This document shows positions 40,882-52,310 of a stretch of 64,000 nucleotides of DNA, piece after piece. Every line of letters starts with the position of its first letter. Position 1 is the stretch's first letter. The notes below the pieces were generated by a model. That model searched no databases, was not told where the DNA came from, and was given only the letters and a program-made list of their open reading frames with translations. The DNA is taken from assembly GCF_021028975.2 (NCBI RefSeq), contig NC_059438.1, forward strand, positions 25,296,001 to 25,360,000. Direction: 5' to 3'. The DNA comes from Sphaerodactylus townsendi. Lineage: Eukaryota. The translations under genes were made by a program, and so were the position numbers.

Positions 40882-43800
40882 CACCCCCAGCAAAGCCCCG
40901 GGTTTCTGTTCTGAGCTGCTTGTGGCCAATGGCCCAGCTCCGTGCCCTTGTGCAGGGTCCCCCAGAGTGGGCGTCTGGTTCCTGTGCTCTAGAGGAGAGG
41001 CTCCAGAGAGGCACGTGCGTTTTCTCCTTGCTGCCAGGGCAGAATGCTCCCCCAGGGCCTGCTGTCAGCCAGGCGGGGCAGCTATTTTATTTTATTTTTA
41101 TATTTATATACCGCCCTCCCCGAAGGCTCAGGGCGGTTTCCATCAACAATAAAAGTTTAAAACATGGTATATATAATTTACCTAAAATACTAAACTATAG
41201 ATGGCTTCAGCTCATCTTTCCCCCTTTATGAACCCACGGGAGGCCGGATGTTTTTTGGCAAGTTGACATCATCCCGGCTGGCCAAACGCCTGGCGGAACA
41301 GGTCCGTTTTACAGGCCCTGTGGAAACTTTGTAAGTCCCGCAGGGCCCTGATCTCACCTGGAAGCCTGTTCCACCAGGTAGGGGCCAGAGCCTCTCTGAT
41401 CTCCTACTCCTGCAGGTGGTTGTGGGATGGACTGCCCAGAAGTCTGAGGAATTGCATATGGAACATTATCAGGAGGAAGCAGATTGCTAAGCACTTTTGT
41501 GATGGGGTGGGGAACACACTCCGCACTCCCAGGGTTGGCTCTCATGGCTGGGTGGGGCTGGCTTTCCATTTTCAAAAGTATGTGTCTGGGGAGTGTGTTT
41601 GCCCCGGTATCCAAAGTGTGCCTGTGCCTGGGATGAGGCCTCGGTTCTGGTGCTCCCCCAAGCAGGGCAGAGGTGTCACATGGCCAGGCTGGCTGGCTCT
41701 CCCTCCCTCCGGGCTGCCTCTGGACCTCTCTCCAAGCCAGCCTTGAGCCTCAACAGGCTTGAACCTTGAGCCTCACATTGGCCGTGCTGTTCTTTCCTGA
41801 GGCTCAGGCTCCCTCTAGCGTCTGCAAGAGAACTGCAGCCCTCTGTCCTCCAAGCAGGATTTGTAGGCGCCAGAGACTCCCCAAGTCTTAGCATGGGAGA
41901 GAAGGTTGGAGTTTTCCCTGGCTGCTGCGGACAGGAGTGTCTGGTTAAGAGCATGGCAGGCAGCACCCTGCAGACTCCGGAGGGTTGGTGGTTTGCCTTG
42001 ACTGCAGGCTGTCTATGATGTCCATGCAATGGCATCACCCTGCCTCTTCATTTTTGTAAGACCCACTAAGTATTTGGCCCGCAGGCCCTCTTGCCTCTGG
42101 GCTGGCTTACTGGGGTAGGTAGAAATTGTGGGCATCCATCAGTGTGGTGGCTGAGCGAGGATTCTGACCAGGGGGGTCTCCATTTCCAAACTGCATGAGG
42201 TTTCTTTGCCCCCCCCCCCCCCCAAGTCATTCTGGAAACCACTTGTGCTCCACCTGTGCATCAGACACCCAGAACAGCCTGTAGGATATCCTGGTTTTCT
42301 GGCCATCTTGATGGCAGAATGGAGTGAACCCCCAAAGCATTTATTTTACTTTCATGAATGTGCAGTCCTGAAGATGGAAAGCCCCCTCCCCACCCAAAAG
42401 GGCCAACCCTTGAAACGTGGAGTGTGCTCCCCACCTCATGGCAAGGGGCCTCCGGGGATAGGGCGGTATAAAAGTCCAAAGAATAAATAAAATAAATAAA
42501 TAAGGCTGCTTACCAATCTGCCTCCTCCTGATAATATTCCGTGCCGTCCCTCCAACTTCCAGGCAGTCCAGCCAGCCAGAGCAGCTCACACCTGACCCCA
42601 ACTTCCAGGGGGAAATCGTTTTTGAACGTGGTGACCTGCTCCGTCAGTTGGCTGCTGGTGCACAGTTGTGGCAGGCTGGCCAACGGTCAGCCAAATGGTA
42701 TTGCCGCTGGGAGCAAAACTCTTGCCTCTGCTGAGATGGGCAACTTCTTCCTGGTCTCTGCACAGCCGTCAGTGGACTGGAGTCATTTCCCGTTGAGCAT
42801 CAGCCGTGCCTCAGCCAGATTGTGTGGATGCAACAAGCAGGGGCTGCCCCCCCCCCCCCCATATGTCTCCCGAGCTGCGGCACGTGGCTCTGGTGAAAAA
42901 CAGAGGAACAAAAATGGGCTAGAAAGGTTGAGAAAACAAAACAACAGTGCGAGTTGGTAATTTTTATAATGAGACACAGTGCAAATATTGTACGATGCTA
43001 TAGCAACGTTTTTCGTTAGCGTTAACGGTTTCCTTCTGGCGCAGGCTGCGTGTTGAACGGCCAGGCCGTCCGCCTCCAAATCCACTATGAAAACGGCTTC
43101 ACTGTCTCCAGAGAGGAGGGAGGCTCTGCCAGCATCCTTTTCTGCTACCCGTTTGAGAAGCTGAAAATGTCGGCAGATGACAGCATCAGGAACCTCTACT
43201 TGGATTTTGGGGGACCAGAGGGGGAGCTGGTAAGTAGCAGTAACAGTGACAAGCCTTTATTGGCATAAAATAAACATACAAAATAAGCATACAAAATTTG
43301 CCCATTATTGCTCACAGTTATAGACACTGGTACTAAAATATATACATAGTCCTTCTGTAACTATAGGACATTCCTTCAGCTAAGTTGACTCACTTAAACG
43401 TCATCGAATACTGACAGAAGCTAGAAAAATTACTGCTGGCTATATGTGGTCATAATACATAGACATTGATTGGTATTCATCTAGACCAGTGATGGCGAAC
43501 CTTTTCGAGACCGAGTGCCCAAACTGCAACCCAAAAGCCACTTATTTATCGCAAAGTGCCAACACGGCAATTTAACCTGAATACTGAGGTTTTAGTTTAG
43601 AAAAAACGGTTGGCTCCGAGACGTGCTTTACTCAGGAGTAAGCTTGGTGGTAGTCGGTGGCTTTGCTTTGAAGCAACCATACAACACTTCAAATGGGTGA
43701 ATCATGACCCTAAGAGCAACCGAGCTTACTCCTAGGTAAAGGATTGTGCTTTAGTTCTTCCCATGAAAATCAGTGGGGTTTAACAGCACTTAACAGGGTT

Positions 43801-45090
43801 ACCGACACGTCGTGCCCAGCGGCCCAGGCCAGCCTATATGTATTGGGGGGGGCGATTTTCTGGCCCCCCCCCCCCACATGACGAACTCTGTGCACCCGTG
43901 CCCATAGAGAGGGCTCTGAGTGCCACCTCTGGCACCCGTGCCATAGGTTCGCCACCAATGATCTAGACTTACGTCTATTATCGTTAGCAGAAATTTTGCT
44001 ACATTCTCGCAAACTGTGGGATCCATGTTGTTCAAAAGCATAGGTATCTTAAGAGCATCAGTTAGATTGTTATACAGAAATGGGATAAGTGCAGATTGCG
44101 ACATTCTGATTTTTGCAAACCTTACACAATGAAAGAGGGTATGATCGAGTGTCTCCACCTGACCCATATTGCATGGACATAGCCTCCTCTGTTTATCAAT
44201 TTGTTGGTAAGTAGCAGAGCACGCCCAAATGCCCCCTTCCCGTGCCTGCTGGGTCCCAGGCGGTTGAGACGAGTCGCAGCCATTTCAGCAAGGCAGGATT
44301 TCATTCCTCATCCTGAGAGAGCTCTTGAGAGGCACGCCCGTGCTCCATTTCTCACAACCCAGTCCAGCTGTGCTCAGCTGAAGCATGTCTTGGTCTGCAG
44401 TCTTGTCCTCGGCCACGTGCCTAGTTGTGTTCCGCTTGAGCTGGATCGTGGCTGTTATTCTGAGAGCCAGGACAGTGGCCGGTGGACCCCATTCTCTTCT
44501 AGTGCACACCCTTCCTTGCCGTTTTTGCATCAGGGCATATTTATGAAATGATTGTGAGTGCCTCGTAGAATTGCTTGTTTTTAATTCTTAATTATGTGTT
44601 GAAGCATTTATATCTCACCTTCCTTGTGGTTCAGGATAGCTTTTGATAATAGAAACATTTTAGCTGAAAAGAAAATCACAAGCCCCAAATCTTGCCCCCA
44701 AAAGACGCTGCCCACCAATGCCTGTCAAAAGTCCTGGCAGGCTGGCAAGCCTAGTGGCACTTCCAGAAGACCTCCAGGGAGCCCCCCCGCCCCTCTTCAC
44801 GGAGCCCCTCCCACAGAGCCAGTTGCTTTCTCCCCAGTGACCACGGCCAGCATGGTGCAATGGTTAGCTCACCAGGCTAGGATCAAAGAGACCCATGTTC
44901 GAATCCTTGCCGCTGCCTTTTCAAAACCCTGGCCTGACATCTGCTTTTTCTTTGGTGTGCAAGAAAGTGACGTTGCCGTGTGCTGCTTCCTCCGCAGGCG
45001 CTGGAGCTGCACTCCTGCCCGAAGCCCGTCGTGTTCATCCTGCACACGTTCTTGTCAGCCAAAGTGACCCGCATGGGGCTGCTGGTGTAG
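27814..45090 (+). CDS. SNTB2: Beta-2-syntrophin (split PH-PDZ-PH-SU, 533 aa)
   Basis: Exons 27814-28372, 35805-36018, 38055-38265, 39512-39654, 40636-40832, 43045-43229 and 44998-45090 (TAG). Motifs [33 protein letters not shown] and SU-domain end [27 protein letters not shown]. Phases consistent (1602 nt). Confidence 0.96.
28951..29433. mobile_element. AT-rich fold-back element with a central hammerhead-like core (Penelope-like element remnant, inferred)
   Basis: Diverged inverted arms 28951-29168 / 29226-29433. The minus-strand spacer reads CTGATGA-AGCACCCTTGAAGGGAAGCAC-GAAA. Confidence 0.6.
31781..32005 (-). mobile_element. CR1-type LINE 3' end
   Basis: Same sequence family as 5760-6104. 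(TTCTTATG) tail, flanked by (ATTC/ATTG)n microsatellite. Confidence 0.8.
33223..33395 (-). mobile_element. CR1-type LINE 3' end
   Basis: CATAAGAACATAAGAA tail and body matching 31781-32005. Confidence 0.8.
33404..33658. mobile_element. Tc1/mariner/pogo-like MITE
   Basis: 23-bp TIRs CCCTGTTTCCCCAAAAATAAGAC / GTCTTATTTTCGGGGAAACAGGG and internal GGGCTTAT repeats. The TA TSD is degenerate. Confidence 0.75.
34581..34680. mobile_element. Short hAT MITE fragment
   Basis: Starts CAGGGGTAGGGAACCT. Body CTACAATTCCCATCAG is shared with 20278-20400 and 50713-50808. Confidence 0.65.
41085..41392 (-). mobile_element. L2-type LINE 3' end
   Basis: (TTTA)n tail, ATACCGCCCT...GGGCGG stem-loop and ORF2-end sequence homologous to 62130-62567. 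Confidence 0.7.
43241..44204 (-). mobile_element. Truncated LINE 3' end inserted at the SNTB2 exon-6 donor
   Basis: Zinc-knuckle remnant [11 protein letters not shown] and AATAAAGGCTT tail as in 4114-4881. 13-bp TSD TGGTAAGTAGCAG at 43228-43240 and 44205-44217. Confidence 0.85.
43487..43960. mobile_element. hAT MITE nested in the LINE fragment
   Basis: TIRs CAGTGATGGCGAACCT / AGGTTCGCCACCAATG and a perfect 8-bp TSD ATCTAGAC (43479-43486, 43961-43968). Confidence 0.9.
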
Positions 45091-46850
45091 CCGCCGGGGG
45101 TCGCCTGGAGAACCTCTGCGGGGGCTCCTCCCAGCCTCAGTGCCTTGTCCCGGACTTGCTGCCTGTTGGATGCTTTGCCTGCCAAAGACCCGTGGCCACG
45201 GAGGGCTGCTGCTCTTGCTGGATGCTGTCCTGAGAGAGAGGTGGCCGCAACAGACAGAGGAGAACGACAACTGTGGGCAGGGGGGGCACTGCCCTTGCTT
45301 GCCCTCTGTTCCTGGCGGCTGGCTGCAAGAGGGCAGGTGGGAGGAGGAGGAGGAGGAAGCGCCCAGCATTTCAAAGCCATTTCTTCTGCTGCTGCTGCTT
45401 GCCAAACGTGCCTTTTGGTGTCGGAAGAGGAGACACTCCGCTGAGGGACAAGCCAGAGGCGTCCTGGATCCAGCCTTTTAGGGCTTCGTTCTGCACCTCT
45501 TGTAGGCAGGGGGGACGGTACTGGGGGGGGCTTAACCATGGAGGGCAGGTGGGTCAGAACTCCCCCTCCCTCCCTTTTGTGCCAAAGATCCGATCAGAAA
45601 GGGGAATGCTCCGTTTTGCCCCATTTGAGTGCTGGCCCCCTGTGGCGGCTTGAGAGCGGAGTTTCTTCTTGCCCCAGCCCTGGTTTAGGGAGGGCAGACT
45701 CGAGAAGCCGTGGGGCATGGTGCAGGTGGCCTTTGTGGAAGACCGAGGACCCCTCCTGCCTGGGTTGGGGCTGGCGTGGCCAGGCACCTTCTGCCGGTTC
45801 CGACTTGACAGGGAGACGCCCTCTGGCAGCCTGGACTTCGAGCGGCCGATCCTTGCAGGTCCAGAGCCTCGGCCAGGGAGGTTGGGGATCTCCCAGCATG
45901 CTCCTGTCTCCGTGCTGGCCTGTTTCTAGCCCCAGCCTTGGGGGTCTTTCTCACTGTGATCACCTGAGCTGGACAGTGCAGAGCCTTAAGCCAAGAGATT
46001 CCTCCTCCTCCTCTGTTTCCTCAAGGAAGAGGCTGGTGGGGGAGGGGGTCACGGCAGTCACGTGGGTTTCAACTCCCTTTCAGGTCTGCCTTTGCTGCCA
46101 CAAGGACTGGCAGTTTCACAGTTAACCAAAAGGAGAGATTCATGTCTTTGGTACCAGAACGCAGACCTTCCTTTTGGCCCACGAGACGCTGCCTTTCCTT
46201 GGCCCACAGACCCACTGAGTCCCTTGGCCCCAATGCCAGGGGCAGAGATGGGGGAGGCTGCAAAATAGTTCACCCTTTGCTGTGACTGGCAAGCCCAAAG
46301 TGCCTTCTTCTTCTTCTTCTTCTCCCAGAGTGGGAGAGAGCCTCCTTCCCAGACTGCCATCCAGGGGCTCCAGGCTCAAGAGAGAAGCTGCAGAATGGAA
46401 GCTTCTCACAATCCAAAGGAACAGCTTGCTTAGCTGGGGGGTGGGGGTGGGCAGATCAGGTGGAAGCTATGGACCAAATTGCAGAGGGGGGGGGAACCCC
46501 CAGGTATTGATGGGGCTGCTGGTGCTTCTGAAAGGGAGCATCCTGGGCAGGGGAGGGACGGGGCTGACTGGCCAGAGAAATGGGCTGAAGTCAGGTGCTG
46601 CGTCCAGGAGCATCTCCTCCTGCCTAGTTGCAGCCAGGAAGACTGCACTGGAAAGGTGAAGTTCTGCTATCGGATTTGATATGCAGAGTTGACTGCAGTA
46701 GCCTGCAAATCTGAAAGGTTTTCCACAGAAAGTGGGTGCTGAAGGGAAAGTAGTCTGGTCTAGTGGGTGGGGGAGAGAAGAGGCAGAGAAAACATGGCAT
46801 CCTTTCCCACAGGCCTTGGACGTCATCTAGCTGTAATCAAGCACCGGGGA

Positions 46851-47148
46851 CGTAGGAGGTTAAGAGCTCGTGTATCTAATCTGGAGGAACCGGGTTTGAT
46901 TCCCAGCTCTGCTGCCTGAGCTGTGGAGGCTTATCTGGGGAATTCAGATTAGCCTGCGCACTCCCACACACGCCAGCTGGGTGACCTTGGGCTAGTCACA
47001 GCTTCTCGGAGCTCTCTCAGCCCCACCCACCTCACAGGGTGTTTGTTGTGAGGGGGGAAGGGCAAGGAGATTGTCAGCCCCTTTGAATCTCCTGCAAGAG
47101 AGAAAGGGGGGATATAAATCCAAACTCTTCTTCTTCTTCTTCTTCTTC
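46851..47148 (+). mobile_element. Young CORE SINE (Squam3-like) in the SNTB2 3' UTR
   Basis: Full tRNA head, CORE and (CTT)n tail. Confidence 0.85.
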
Positions 47149-48249
47149 ATTATCTGCCCCAGGTTTGCTACACCAGAGGAGGTGACAGAGAAGCAGGACA
47201 TGACGTTCCCAGCCTGGAGAAAGGCAGAGTCCCCCCGCAAGGGCTGATCAGGGTCTCACGCCTCTCGACTCACCCATTGGGGCCAGCCAAAGGGCAGCGC
47301 GGCCTTCGCTGAGTGGGGGCAGGAACAACCTTGGCTCTTAGTAAGCTGCAGGGTCTGGGGGTAATGTTGGAGATGCCAGAGGTTTTCCAGATGGTCCCAG
47401 CTGCCTCCCCCCACCCCTTAAATGGCAGGGCAAGGGCTGAAGTCTGTTCTCAGCCAGACTGTTTTTGACACTAGCAGGGGTAGCTTTTTGGCATGGCCAG
47501 CAGTGTGCGTGTGCTCCGCGAGAGCTTTTTTGCGAGAGCCCCCCGTCCAGCAGCCGCCTCTTACTCGCCTGTTAGATGCAGCTCCCAAGGCTGTCCTTGG
47601 TCTTTATATCAGTACGCTGTTCCAGGCTGTATTTGGAGACACTAGTAGTTAGTTTACAATTTGGGCGTCTTCGCCTCCTGCAGCACGTAATCCTTGTGGT
47701 TCCCTTTCGGTGCTGCTGTGGTGGCTGCCAAAGGCATCCCTCCCACAGGGACCAGGCCAGCACCACAGATGCCTTTGCCGTGTGGCTCCCTGTGCTGCGG
47801 AGTGCATGGAAGTCAGCAGGCCGGTTGGTGTTAACACAACTGCTGACATGACAGCAACAGCCACGAGCCAGTTCAGGCAAGCACAGGCTGCTTCTATGTG
47901 GCAGGGATGCTCTGCGTGGCTTTTGTTGCCCTCTGGGGACGCAGAGGCGTTTGCCACAGCAACGGAGTGTCCAGGCAGAGATTTCACGCCTGCTAACCTC
48001 ACCTCGACTTTCCTCGGCCGTCGGGCAGCACCAGAAAGCTGCTTTGGGCGTTTTGGACGTATCCGCAACTGATGTACTCTTTGGCATCGTAACGTTCTAT
48101 TGGCTTCTCTGAATTCTGAGCATTTTTTAAAAGTCTTCCTCTTCTTTCGTTGCAGAGATAGAAGGGAATAGGCATGTCTCCATGACTTCCTTAAAGATTG
48201 GAAGCAGTGTATTTTAGGGAACTTTTGGGTGTGGAATAATCTAATAAAG

Positions 48250-48400
48250 CCAGAAGTGAAGCAAGGTCGGTACTTGGATGGGAGACCACCAAGGAAGACT
48301 CTGCAGAAGAAGGCAATGACAAACCACCTCTGCTGCTGCTCACTTGCCTTGAAAACCCCTTGCTGGGGCCACCATACGCCAGTTGTGACTTGTCAGCCCT
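48250..48400 (+). mobile_element. 5S rRNA-derived SINE with an RTE/BovB-like tail
   Basis: 5S box-C-like GTACTTGGATGGGAGACC followed by GAAGGCAATGACAAACCACCTCTG, a tail typical of RTE-mobilised SINEs. Confidence 0.6.
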
Positions 48401-48896
48401 TTACAAACACATTCAGAGGAACTAGTAGATTGTCACCCTACTAAAGATGTCAGTTGCTGACTATTTTTTAAAAAAACAAGGGGCCTCCAGCGGCCGGTGA
48501 GAAGGGGGCGGGGGGTTGAAGAAGGGAAATGGTGCGGATGCTGAGGAAACCTGCAAAAATTATCTTCCCAGCAAGATTATGCCAGGGTTGAGAAAGGTGT
48601 CAGTGAGGCTAAGAGCACACTGAAAGTGGGGGGTTCAGGGAGGATGCTGGGAAAACAACAACCCTGCTCTGTTTTGCTGGCCAAACGAGCAAAATGTCCC
48701 TGTGGCAGCAGTTGAGATGGGCTTTTAAAAAATGCACAGGAAAGCAGACCTCGGCAAACAGTTGGCCCCACCACGCAAATAGCACTTTTCCTGAAAGGTT
48801 AGTACTTCTGTGCCTAAGGGAGGCTTCCCAGCACAGAAAAAGTGTGTCTGGTCGCCTTATCCCCGAACAGTAGGCAGTTGAGGAGATGGATGTGTG

Positions 48897-49444
48897 TCTA
48901 AGAAACCTATATACCGATCAAAATATATAGTTATACTCATAGTATAAGCTGTTATGGTGGCTTCAATGGGAAGTTGAGTACACTCATATTTCTCAACATA
49001 CGTAAAATGCAATATACACAATGCTTATTAATATTTCTATTCTCAATAGACTCCCTCGGAAGGAGTGTTGTAATCACTCCTTATGTGCTAAACACAATTT
49101 GCACAATTTGAATTCAGCCACGTATCCAAAACAGTAATACACACTGAAGGATAAGAACCTTGCAAATATAAGGAGAATACCATTAATTTGGATATGGACA
49201 TATGAAGAGCAAAATTGTTCATTTTTCATGATACGTTGGACTGAGCCGGGTGCAAATTGTGTTTAGCACATAAGGAGTGATTACAACACTCTTTCCGAGG
49301 GAGTCTATTGAGAATAGAAATATTAATAAGCATTGTGTATATTGCATTTTATGTATGTTGAGAAATATTAGCGTATAATACATTGAAGCCACTATAGCAG
49401 CATACGTGAGTCTTGTATATATTTTTTCGGTCCGGTTTCTTAGA
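48897..49444. mobile_element. 548-bp AT-rich fold-back insertion with a 12-bp TSD in the SNTB2 3' UTR
   Basis: Termini TCTAAGAAACC / GGTTTCTTAGA, ~230-bp inverted arms, and TSD GATGGATGTGTG at 48885-48896 and 49445-49456. Confidence 0.85.
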
Positions 49445-50180
49445 GATGGATGTGTGCCCTGGAGCATTCCTGGTCATTCCACCAGGGGTCTGGCAGCTTC
49501 CGAGGTGGGGCCTGCTTCCCTTGGGGCGGGGGGGGGGGGGGGGCAGGGAAAGCCTCGAGCTTATTCTTGCTGGTGACCTCTTGATTGCCTTTCAGCCGAT
49601 GTGCTGCTTAGTTTTCTTTGGTCCCTGACTGGCGTCGGTCTGTTCCGGGGGTCTCCTCTGCTTCTAGAACTAGTAGCTAGTTTACAGTTTGGGTAAATGC
49701 AACTTCCCAGGCCCAAAGTGCCAAAGATAAGATTTCCTTGTAGGATCTCTTAGAACAACTTGCACAGAAACCACTACAAAGCAATTGTCTGTTCCACGCG
49801 TGTTCTGTGTGGGGGCACATGTGATATCGTATGATATTTGCTATTCAGGCACAGTTAGTGATGCTGCCACATGCAATCTCAAATGTACAACCAACTTTAT
49901 TTTTGTATTCTTTGTAAATGCTATTTATACAAGAGTGACTCCCCACCTCTGCAGTTTTTATTCTCAAGTCTTAAGAGTCTCCAGGTGACCAGTATCCAGG
50001 TAAACCAAGCAAGGATGCTTGGGCAATTTTGGAAGGACCTGAAGCCGTAAGCCTTTGAGAGCTCTGTATACGCTAGAGATGCGTTAACCACCTCCACCTT
50101 CTGGGTTATGTTGATTATATAGTATTGTACATTACAATGGCAAGATGACCAATGGCAAAGGTAGCCTTTGTGTGGTGTAC

Positions 50181-50186
50181 AATAAA
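50181..50186 (+). terminator. Probable distal SNTB2 polyadenylation signal (3' UTR ~5.1 kb)
   Basis: AATAAA preceded by TGTA motifs and a U-rich UTR-like segment, followed by GT-rich sequence. Confidence 0.6.
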
Positions 50187-50712
50187 GGTGTGGATACCTT
50201 TAGTCTGAATTCTTTGGCTTGTGTTTGCGGGAGAAGTGAAGCACTTCAGAACAACGTTCAGAACACAACCATGAGTTCCATTGGGAGCAATTACTTATTA
50301 CCTATTGGTATGTAAAGCCCACATTTTCTCATAAAAAATGGCTGTGTATTTTCAGTTAAAATAGCATTATTTTTGTCAGCTGCAAGATACGTCCAGAAAC
50401 CTCCTGGACGTTCAGAGGTAAGATTCATGCAAAAAAGCTTGCGGCTGTGTGTATTATACTGACCCCAGAAGAAAACACCTGTCAGCTTTTTTTCCCAGTC
50501 TCTGTGCAAACAATAGACATACAGGAACACCATAACTTACCCCGTTCTGTGCAGACGGGAGACGGAGAAAGCCAGATCTTCTTCTGTTTGCTGGGAATCT
50601 CTCTGGACCGGGTCTCAGCTGCAGAAGCCTCCTTTCCTTTTCCCCCTGAAAAGCACAAGGCCACACGTCCCCCTGGGCCTCCCCCCCCCCCAGCTATCTT
50701 CCTCCGGTTCCT

Positions 50713-51289: not shown

Positions 51290-52310
51290 CCCCCCCACTC
51301 CTCCATGTGAGCGGCGGACTCTTCTCCGGTGAACTAGGTTTGTTTCTCCACATGAAGCCTGCAGGGTCACCTTGGGCCAGTCACAGTTTTCTCAGAACTC
51401 TTCTAACCCCGCCTACCTCACAAGGTGTCTGTTGTGGGGAAGGGAAGGTGCGGTGATTGTGAGCCACTCTGAGACCCCTCAAAGGTAGAGAAAAGTTGGG
51501 TATGAAAACCAATTCTTCTTCTAATCTGGAAAACTGGGTTTGATTCCCCACTCCTCCGCCTGAGCAGCAAACTCTAATCTGGAGAACCAGGTTTGTTCCC
51601 CTGCTCCTCCACATGAAGCCTGCTGAATGACCTTGGGCCAGTCACAGTTCTCTCAGAACCCTCTCAGCCCCGCCTACCTCACAAGGTGTCTGTTGTGGGG
51701 AAGGGAAGGTGCGGTGATTGTGAGCCACTCTGAGACCCCTCAAAGGTAGAGAAAAGTTGGGTATGAAAACCAATTCTTCTTCTAATCTGGAAAACTGGGT
51801 TTGATTCCTTCACTCTTGGAGCAGCAAACTCTAATCTGGAGAACTTCAGGTTTGGTTCCTCTGCAAGTTCACATTAGAAGCCTGCTGAATGACCTTTGGG
51901 GTCAGTCATAGCCCTCTCAGAACTTCTCTCAGCCCTCACCTACTCCCACAAGGTGTCTGTTGTGGGGAAGGGAAGGTGCGGTGATTGTGAGCCACTCTGA
52001 GACCCCTCAAAGGTAGAGAAAAGTTGGGTATGAAAACCAATTCTTCTTCTAATCTGGAAAACTGGGTTTGATTCCCCACTCCTCCGCCTGAGCAGCAAAC
52101 TCTAATCTGGAGAACCAGGTTTGTTCCCCTGCTCCTCCACATGAAGCCTGCTGAATGACCTTGGGCCAGTCACAGTTCTCTCAGAACCCTCTCAGCCCCG
52201 CCTACCTCAGAAGGTGTCTGTTGGGGAGGGAGGGAGGGAGGGAGGGGAGCTGCTTAGGTGAGACTCCTTAGGTGGAGAAAAACGGGCATAGAAACCAACT
52301 CTTCTTCTTC
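51290..52310 (+). repeat. Head-to-tail tandem array of ~4 SINE-derived units (~260 bp)
   Basis: Anchor CTAATCTGGAAAACTGGGTTTGATTCC at 51521, 51782 and 52049. Confidence 0.85.

Follow-up and report, generated by a model that had tools for sequence, protein, structure and literature searches.

SNTB2 and the insert downstream of its coding region

The window, the whole stretch of 64,000 nt that was analysed, contains a syntrophin gene, recognised by its Pfam domains PH_17 and Syntrophin_4th, and downstream of it a 548-bp insert (48897-49444) that folds back on itself (Table 1). The PDZ exon of the gene scores 129 bits against beta-2 syntrophin, compared with 112 bits against beta-1 and 107 bits against alpha-1, and identifies the gene, by similarity, as beta-2-syntrophin (SNTB2). 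This agrees with the sequence-only reading, which had placed the insert behind that gene. A PDB search with one exon returned no match, and a search of the window with short peptide patterns expected of a VPS4-type gene next door gave nothing convincing.

Table 1. Features of the SNTB2 insert and its surroundings, in window coordinates
Feature	Position	Strand	Remark
SNTB2 last coding exon with stop codon	44998-45090	+	stop codon 45088-45090; 3.8 kb upstream of the insert
Left target-site duplication	48885-48896	+	12 bp, extended to 14 bp when the shared GA is assigned to the target
Left arm: inverted, 5'-truncated copy of the element 3' end, without tail	48897-49104	-	arrangement shared with 14 other family loci
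Outer left arm as assembled, letters likely corrupted	48908-48985	-	64 bases align, with 5 gap events and 9 substitutions
Left stem core	48986-49104	-	two departures from the family majority: 49002 and the sub-lineage site 49066
Junction of inverted and forward copy	49105-49109	.	short repeat of the last arm letters; RNA contig 49084-49173 matches without difference
Forward copy: 3' 335 bp of a Penelope-like pseudo-LTR, without tail	49110-49444	+	92.8-98.5% identical to same-subfamily copies
Motif proposed as a decayed hammerhead; not a hammerhead	49202-49239	+	A and GATA at core positions family-wide
Right target-site duplication	49445-49456	+	DNA contig 49415-50305 matches without difference
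RNA contig downstream of the insert	49555-49694	+	beyond 49694, 31 other letters: short-repeat tip with AATAAA

The insert consists of an inverted left arm of 208 bp and a forward copy, of which 49110-49249 forms the loop and 49250-49444 the right arm of 195 bp; the inverted arms described from the sequence are present but shorter than the ~230 bp then given. The 11 bp at either end of the insert are identical in inverted orientation, and the 12-bp target duplication, GATGGATGTGTG, occurs in the window at 48885 and 49445 only. The stem cores (48986-49104 and 49250-49368) measure 119 bp each and mismatch at 49002 and 49062, both of which form G:U pairs on the plus strand; insert length, duplication, cores and wobbles had all been read correctly. 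The predicted fold has an energy of -304.9 kcal/mol on the plus strand (z -31.4 against shuffles) and of -285.9 kcal/mol on the minus strand (z -30.7). Since both strands fold far beyond chance, the earlier claim that the stem is fully paired on the sense strand only comes down to two pairs.

Of runs X1-X16, none recorded as RNA or small RNA, five (X1 and X3-X6) were compared with the window. Transcription of the region is seen in run X4, a single sample recognised as RNA by an exon-exon join alone. In this run exon 43045-43229 is joined to the last coding exon, by a contig that passes from 43228 to 44997 across the last intron and continues to 46878. Further X4 contigs cover 47159-47914, 47916-48298 and 48278-48900, read from the left flank into the element, and match the inner junction, with 26 letters on the short side where the threshold of the comparison is 31. 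At 49292 most X4 depth carries the window copy's own T. No X4 contig covers 49460-49529 (beside a skipped G run), 49705-49800 or 49947-50207, and 48935-48969 is without contig in X1, X4 and X6. This RNA evidence consists of contigs, in which strand, level and transcript ends are not visible and none of which spans the hairpin by itself. Because contigs lie on both flanks and within the element, the whole hairpin likely lies in the SNTB2 3' UTR, as the sequence-only reading had supposed, and one continuous plus-strand transcript would run through it.

The 3' end of this UTR had been placed at 50186, and AATAAA occurs in the region at 48243 and 50181. The lone RNA assembly does not show that end, as it departs from the window letters at 49694. 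The 31 letters that follow are absent from the window and have 38 exact matches elsewhere in the assembly; a splice to a nearby exon was considered and rejected, as the letters are not in the window. They likely belong to a polymorphic insertion allele of a short repeat, which could add a poly(A) signal at a distance of 250 nt beyond the hairpin. The repeat, as seen at five loci (L033-L037), has a tip of ~30 nt, TATC repeats, target duplications of 10-14 bp and an AATAAA.

Other repeats were noted in the vicinity. DNA contigs of runs X1 and X3 join 43240 to 44223, and the ~1-kb repeat at 43241-44222 in the last SNTB2 intron is likely an insertion polymorphism, missing in an allele of both samples. 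At 51290-52100 at least three SINE-like units of ~261 bp stand head to tail and are related to a repeat at 46850-47140. A 25-bp pair, 92% identical (47641-47665 and 49669-49693), flanks the insert in the UTR region, with no wider similarity around it.

The insertion is young. In organism C, a related species (run X6), a contig joins 48879 to 49443 and shows the empty site with a single copy of the target, so the check for an empty site that had been suggested for related species came out positive. The skip measures 563 rather than 560 nt, likely through a 3-nt difference in the adjacent GAG run. The site is filled in all three same-species samples compared (S1, S2 and S3); in organism B (run X5), which has no contig at 48642-48902, it is unreadable. 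As a separate observation, contig depth of organism C over 49110-49444 lies far above that of the flanks, most of it at the 3' end, which points to a family likely to be more abundant in that species.

Penelope-like relatives of the insert

A check of copy number, also suggested earlier, gave at least 110 family matches in the own genome, from 40 scored candidates. Of thirty family loci fetched, 27 are distinct; the majority align with the last 335 bp of the insert at the identity given in Table 1, a second subfamily matches at ~82%, and L003 shares the window unit at 98.5%. An inverted arm of 44 to more than 300 bp is present in 15 of the 27 distinct loci, the window's included, and lacking in the other 12. 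Because the inverted arms begin at the 3' end of the element, the copies stand head to head. The 5' ends are variable, and the 3' ends fall at two fixed points ~33 nt apart: a terminal extension (tail) of 33 nt is found in 11 of 23 aligned copies, while 12 end without it, as does the window copy, and in several copies the inverted arm, not the forward one, carries it. Of the 20 loci checked with rough boundaries, 13 are flanked by direct repeats of 12-16 bp, lengths that include shared letters; at the other seven no duplication of at least 12 bp was found with the same boundaries.

Upstream of the unit, L003 carries a 160-nt GT..AG intron that is precisely absent from L006; the intron recurs in L050-L054, and the spliced form in L009 and L010 as well. 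Farther upstream in L003 a frame ends that contains a CxxCxxC motif and matches GIY-YIG (E 3e-4, 21.4 bits), and the window unit is continuous with intron and GIY-YIG frame in L003/L032. A subfamily that is 74-76% identical to L003 over ~1.2 kb has RVT_1 and GIY-YIG domains in one frame. In the single frames of L050 and L051, RVT_1 is matched at E 3.5e-7 and 1.6e-6, above the Pfam cut-off in one of the two, and GIY-YIG at E 2e-4; the GIY-YIG scores of 21.4-21.9 bits fall just under the cut-off of 22.6. A zinc-finger-like linker (CGHCVMC / CGHCTMC) precedes the GIY-YIG motif. An upstream direct pseudo-LTR (pLTR) was seen in none of five longer fetched loci, which are 5'-truncated or inverted.

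The inverted truncated copies, tails, pLTR intron, zinc-finger linker and RT/GIY-YIG frames mark the family as Penelope-like, and by these sequence features the window copy is classified as the truncated pLTR end of a Penelope-like element (PLE; EN+). To judge by the linker motif, which is common to Nematis, the clade would be of Neptune type. The preference for an inverted Penelope-like pseudo-LTR over a DNA transposon, expressed from the insert alone, is borne out by the RT and GIY-YIG domains, the intron and the tail of the family loci.

Two further features of the family were observed. Intron-bearing copies (L003, L011, L013, L023, L027 and L030) occur beside precisely spliced ones (L006, L009, L010, L022, L026 and L028) in both subfamilies, which indicates that both RNA forms were retrotransposed. 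Longer Penelope-like copies adjoin long frames (L052:350-3535, L053:206-2824 and L054) that, to judge by their motifs, would be retrotransposons of copia, gypsy and DIRS type.

According to the accessible text of PMC8557442 and PMC3846280, PLEs form inverted truncated copies and have 30-40-bp tails and pLTR introns, and an RT-EN zinc-finger linker (CX2-5CxxC) is typical of Neptune and Nematis. The PLEs with an inverted pseudo-LTR presented there (Penelope/Poseidon, Neptune and Nematis) resemble the window family in 5' truncation, in an inverted 5'-truncated copy that serves as terminal inverted repeats, in the optional 30-40-bp tail, the target duplication and the pLTR intron, and in an RT with a C-terminal GIY-YIG domain. 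The window copy differs from them in comprising the last 335 bp of the pLTR, without ORF, hammerhead or tail at either end, and the target duplications measure 12-16 bp in its family compared with 8-10 bp in the rotifer PLE examples of these sources. For Poseidon PAc of Anolis carolinensis, the available part of PMC11167929 reports that reverse transcription has two start sites, by which the tail is defined, and that both strands are cut. The two 3' end points ~33 nt apart are what two start sites would be expected to leave, and cutting of both strands followed by extension fits the head-to-head product of the window family. Unlike PAc, the window family has a CxxCxxC linker of the Neptune/Nematis type before the endonuclease, and its hammerhead-like motif is found not at the ORF start, as in PAc, but several hundred nt before the 3' end.

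The end of the loop (49202-49239) had been proposed as a decayed hammerhead, a proposal that the family does not support. An A at core position 3, where a hammerhead has C3-G8 or U3-A8, and GATA for GAAA occur in all 21 arms, from 20 loci, matched in a motif scan, so the motif is not a decay of the window copy; it has no helix I pairing, and its fold z is +0.6. A hammerhead core scan of the family pLTRs did not return it, and an Rfam scan of three loci gave 10 weak matches with no hammerhead family among them. Read by eye, the family has a better candidate, with CUGAnGA / GAAA / UH cores, a helix III that is kept with a variable loop, and a possible helix I; a base is bulged after CUGAnGA, and position 7 is variable. 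Folding gives both motifs a z of ~0, so that energy does not separate them and the core letters do. The candidate begins 8 nt behind the intron acceptor and 111 nt upstream of the point where the window copy is truncated; on sequence grounds, the family's putative hammerhead lies outside the window copy. In Drosophila Penelope, as stated in the accessible text of PMC4209133, the intron end abuts helix I.

The shape of the candidate is itself of note. In L032:7790-7845, L046, L047 and L049-L054, helix II is very short, with one G-C pair and a 4-5-nt loop, and helix III is long; the minimal metazoan PLE motifs of PMC4209133, as far as that source is available, are unlike it. The motif is kept across distant subfamilies.

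Arm identity and likely editing of the hairpin

In the assembly the outer left arm is strongly diverged (Table 1), and from its contrast with the near-identical cores it had been argued that selection or intra-hairpin gene conversion keeps the core. The divergence is present in the assembled letters but contradicted by DNA and RNA contigs. In both same-species DNA runs compared (X1 and X3), contigs match the window to 48907 and continue with 18 other letters. Past 48907 the window has TATATACCG; in two RNA contigs its place is taken by GGACCGAAA, which is the right arm in reverse complement. Three samples thus leave the window letters at the same base. At the right end of the core, positions 49369 and 49372 have the family letter in nearly all RNA contig depth; part of the X3 depth, a small one, keeps the window's C at 49372, which may therefore be an allele. 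The outer left arm as assembled (48908-48985) is likely an assembly error.

Similar patchy noise occurs at different places in other fold-backs of the family. L005 has 22 differences in the 119 core positions and 2 in the 76 outside the core, and L008 and L015 carry noise in one arm. For arm pairs with a spacer of at most 212 nt, 50 gap events were counted in 1736 bases, with three or more in six of nine pairs and three of nine nearly clean; six pairs with longer spacers have none in 685 bases, in a tally whose cut-off was chosen after the data had been seen and which leaves out a third arm piece, L013b, with a separation of 650 nt and 2 gap events over 66 bases. Failure of nanopore base calling at inverted duplications is a known problem (PMC7229812 and 10.64898/2026.07.13.738322, in their accessible parts), and a failure of this kind could have produced the wrong outer-arm letters. 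The noise in L005, L008, L015 and L029 is patchy, rich in indels and found in one arm, and likely reflects the same assembly error.

Alternatively, the divergence could be real in the assembled individual, having arisen when a cruciform was repaired with errors or when a second, different RNA served as template. The letters do stand in the assembly, and the compared reads may derive from other individuals. This reading is nevertheless very improbable: three samples leave the window at one base, indel-rich noise hits different parts of the arms in other fold-backs, and a genome-wide search for a second template for 48897-48990 returned one candidate, which was the segment itself, so that no second template is known.

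Sister copies supply an expectation for the cores. Over a total of 1008 bases, eight gap-free sister pairs differ by 16 substitutions, so that 1.9 mismatches would be expected in 119 bp. Two are seen, so that neither selection nor gene conversion is needed to explain the identity of the cores, and the contrast on which that argument was built rests on letters absent from the reads. The strand of the two wobbles had likewise been given weight. One of the changes relative to the family lies in the left arm (and also in an arm of L012), the other in the right arm (and also in L015). Any transition yields a G:U pair on one strand, and the sister pairs L009 and L024 also have both of their two transitions on one strand; a meaning in the strand of the wobbles is therefore not supported. 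The stem likely evolves neutrally.

The RNA contigs also bear on the proposal that the hairpin is an ADAR substrate, which is probably right. Among differences listed at 3% or more, two are found in RNA only, A>G at 49339 in 11 contigs and T>C at 49376 in 8 contigs. Both belong to the A-to-I type, the second as the mirror of A>G on the inverted arm. The variants are absent from the genomic arms that cover these positions, 39 in the first case and 42 in the second. Of the contigs in the RNA run, 161 of 246 are less than 95% alike, compared with 7 of 22 in DNA run X1. The hairpin is thus likely A-to-I edited, with the reservations that alleles could mimic editing, as the DNA comes from another individual than the RNA, and that the RNA-only variants are not tied to the window locus, since other family copies are transcribed too (loose contig ends at 49110 and 49388).

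Editing of such a hairpin would be the expected outcome, not a surprise. The accessible text of PMC5625713 names Penelope as the massively edited LINE-type repeat in a lizard, with more than 40 K unique sites. The self-palindromic repeats described there fold without a second copy, as the insert does; the differences are that the study is genome-wide, concerns another species and, in its available part, names no SNTB2 locus, whereas editing of the present locus is suggested by contigs. An edited SNTB2 site is named for human cancer in what is available of PMC10043753, and a literature search on A-to-I editing of the SNTB2 UTR found nothing on reptiles.

Inverted Alu pairs in primate 3' UTRs are ADAR substrates, on which PMC5625713 has a general statement as well. 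The SNTB2 hairpin would resemble them as a long repeat-derived dsRNA in a 3' UTR. It differs in that one insertion event brings both arms, with a 145-nt loop and ~98% identity.

Origin and significance of the fold-back insertion

Taken together, the insert is very probably the young, 5'-truncated end of a Penelope-like element joined head to head with an inverted copy of itself, which likely forms a hairpin of ~195 bp in the SNTB2 3' UTR that is likely A-to-I edited and likely neutral, the divergence of its outer arm likely being an assembly error. From PMC11167929, in its accessible part, and the ends of the family copies, the following steps may be proposed. The GIY-YIG endonuclease would make one cut in each strand, offset by 12-14 bp, and each cut end would prime reverse transcription that begins at the tail-less start site. 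Both cDNAs would stop early, at 335 and ~195 nt, and be joined in the middle.

A MITE or fold-back DNA transposon of Mutator-like type, with long terminal inverted repeats, would account for the identical 11-bp inverted ends and the long target duplication, and this origin is nonetheless close to negligible in probability. The inverted arm is not a constant of the family, being absent from almost half of the distinct loci and highly variable in length where present; the 5' ends vary while the 3' ends keep to two fixed points, the unit adjoins an intron and a GIY-YIG frame without a break, and the duplication has no fixed length.

Another alternative is that the hairpin has been co-opted: a conserved dsRNA core would regulate SNTB2 mRNA via ADAR, Staufen or Dicer, and selection, or gene conversion within the hairpin, would maintain it. 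RNA contigs over the element and both flanks, two RNA-only differences of the ADAR type and a site filled in all three same-species samples would suit such a role. Against it, the arms are as alike as those of unrelated intergenic sister copies, the contrast of core and outer arm is contradicted by the reads, the site is empty in organism C, and no compensatory change was observed. Editing alone shows no function, as editing of lizard Penelope is widespread (PMC5625713, accessible text). Co-option is therefore quite unlikely, and a neutral, recent insertion is the reading retained here.

A caution follows for work on similar elements. In this assembly the arms of short-loop fold-backs likely carry patchy, indel-rich errors that mimic a 'conserved core', and patterns of arm identity in hairpins should be compared with reads before selection or gene conversion is invoked.

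A far-reaching reading, which we regard as unlikely though worth stating, is that Penelope fold-backs act as one-step dsRNA cassettes, and that this one, recently inserted in the SNTB2 3' UTR and present species-wide, is hyper-edited along a near-perfect 195-bp stem and alters the fate of SNTB2 mRNA. If true, it would be the lizard equivalent of inverted Alu pairs, observed at its very beginning, and the empty-site relative would serve as a natural control. More plainly, the insert is an ordinary case of inverted Penelope-like insertion, and heavy editing of this class in lizards has already been published. The use of the insert may be modest: a young, species-restricted 3' UTR duplex, together with a relative whose site is empty, in which the effect of a new dsRNA on an mRNA could be followed.
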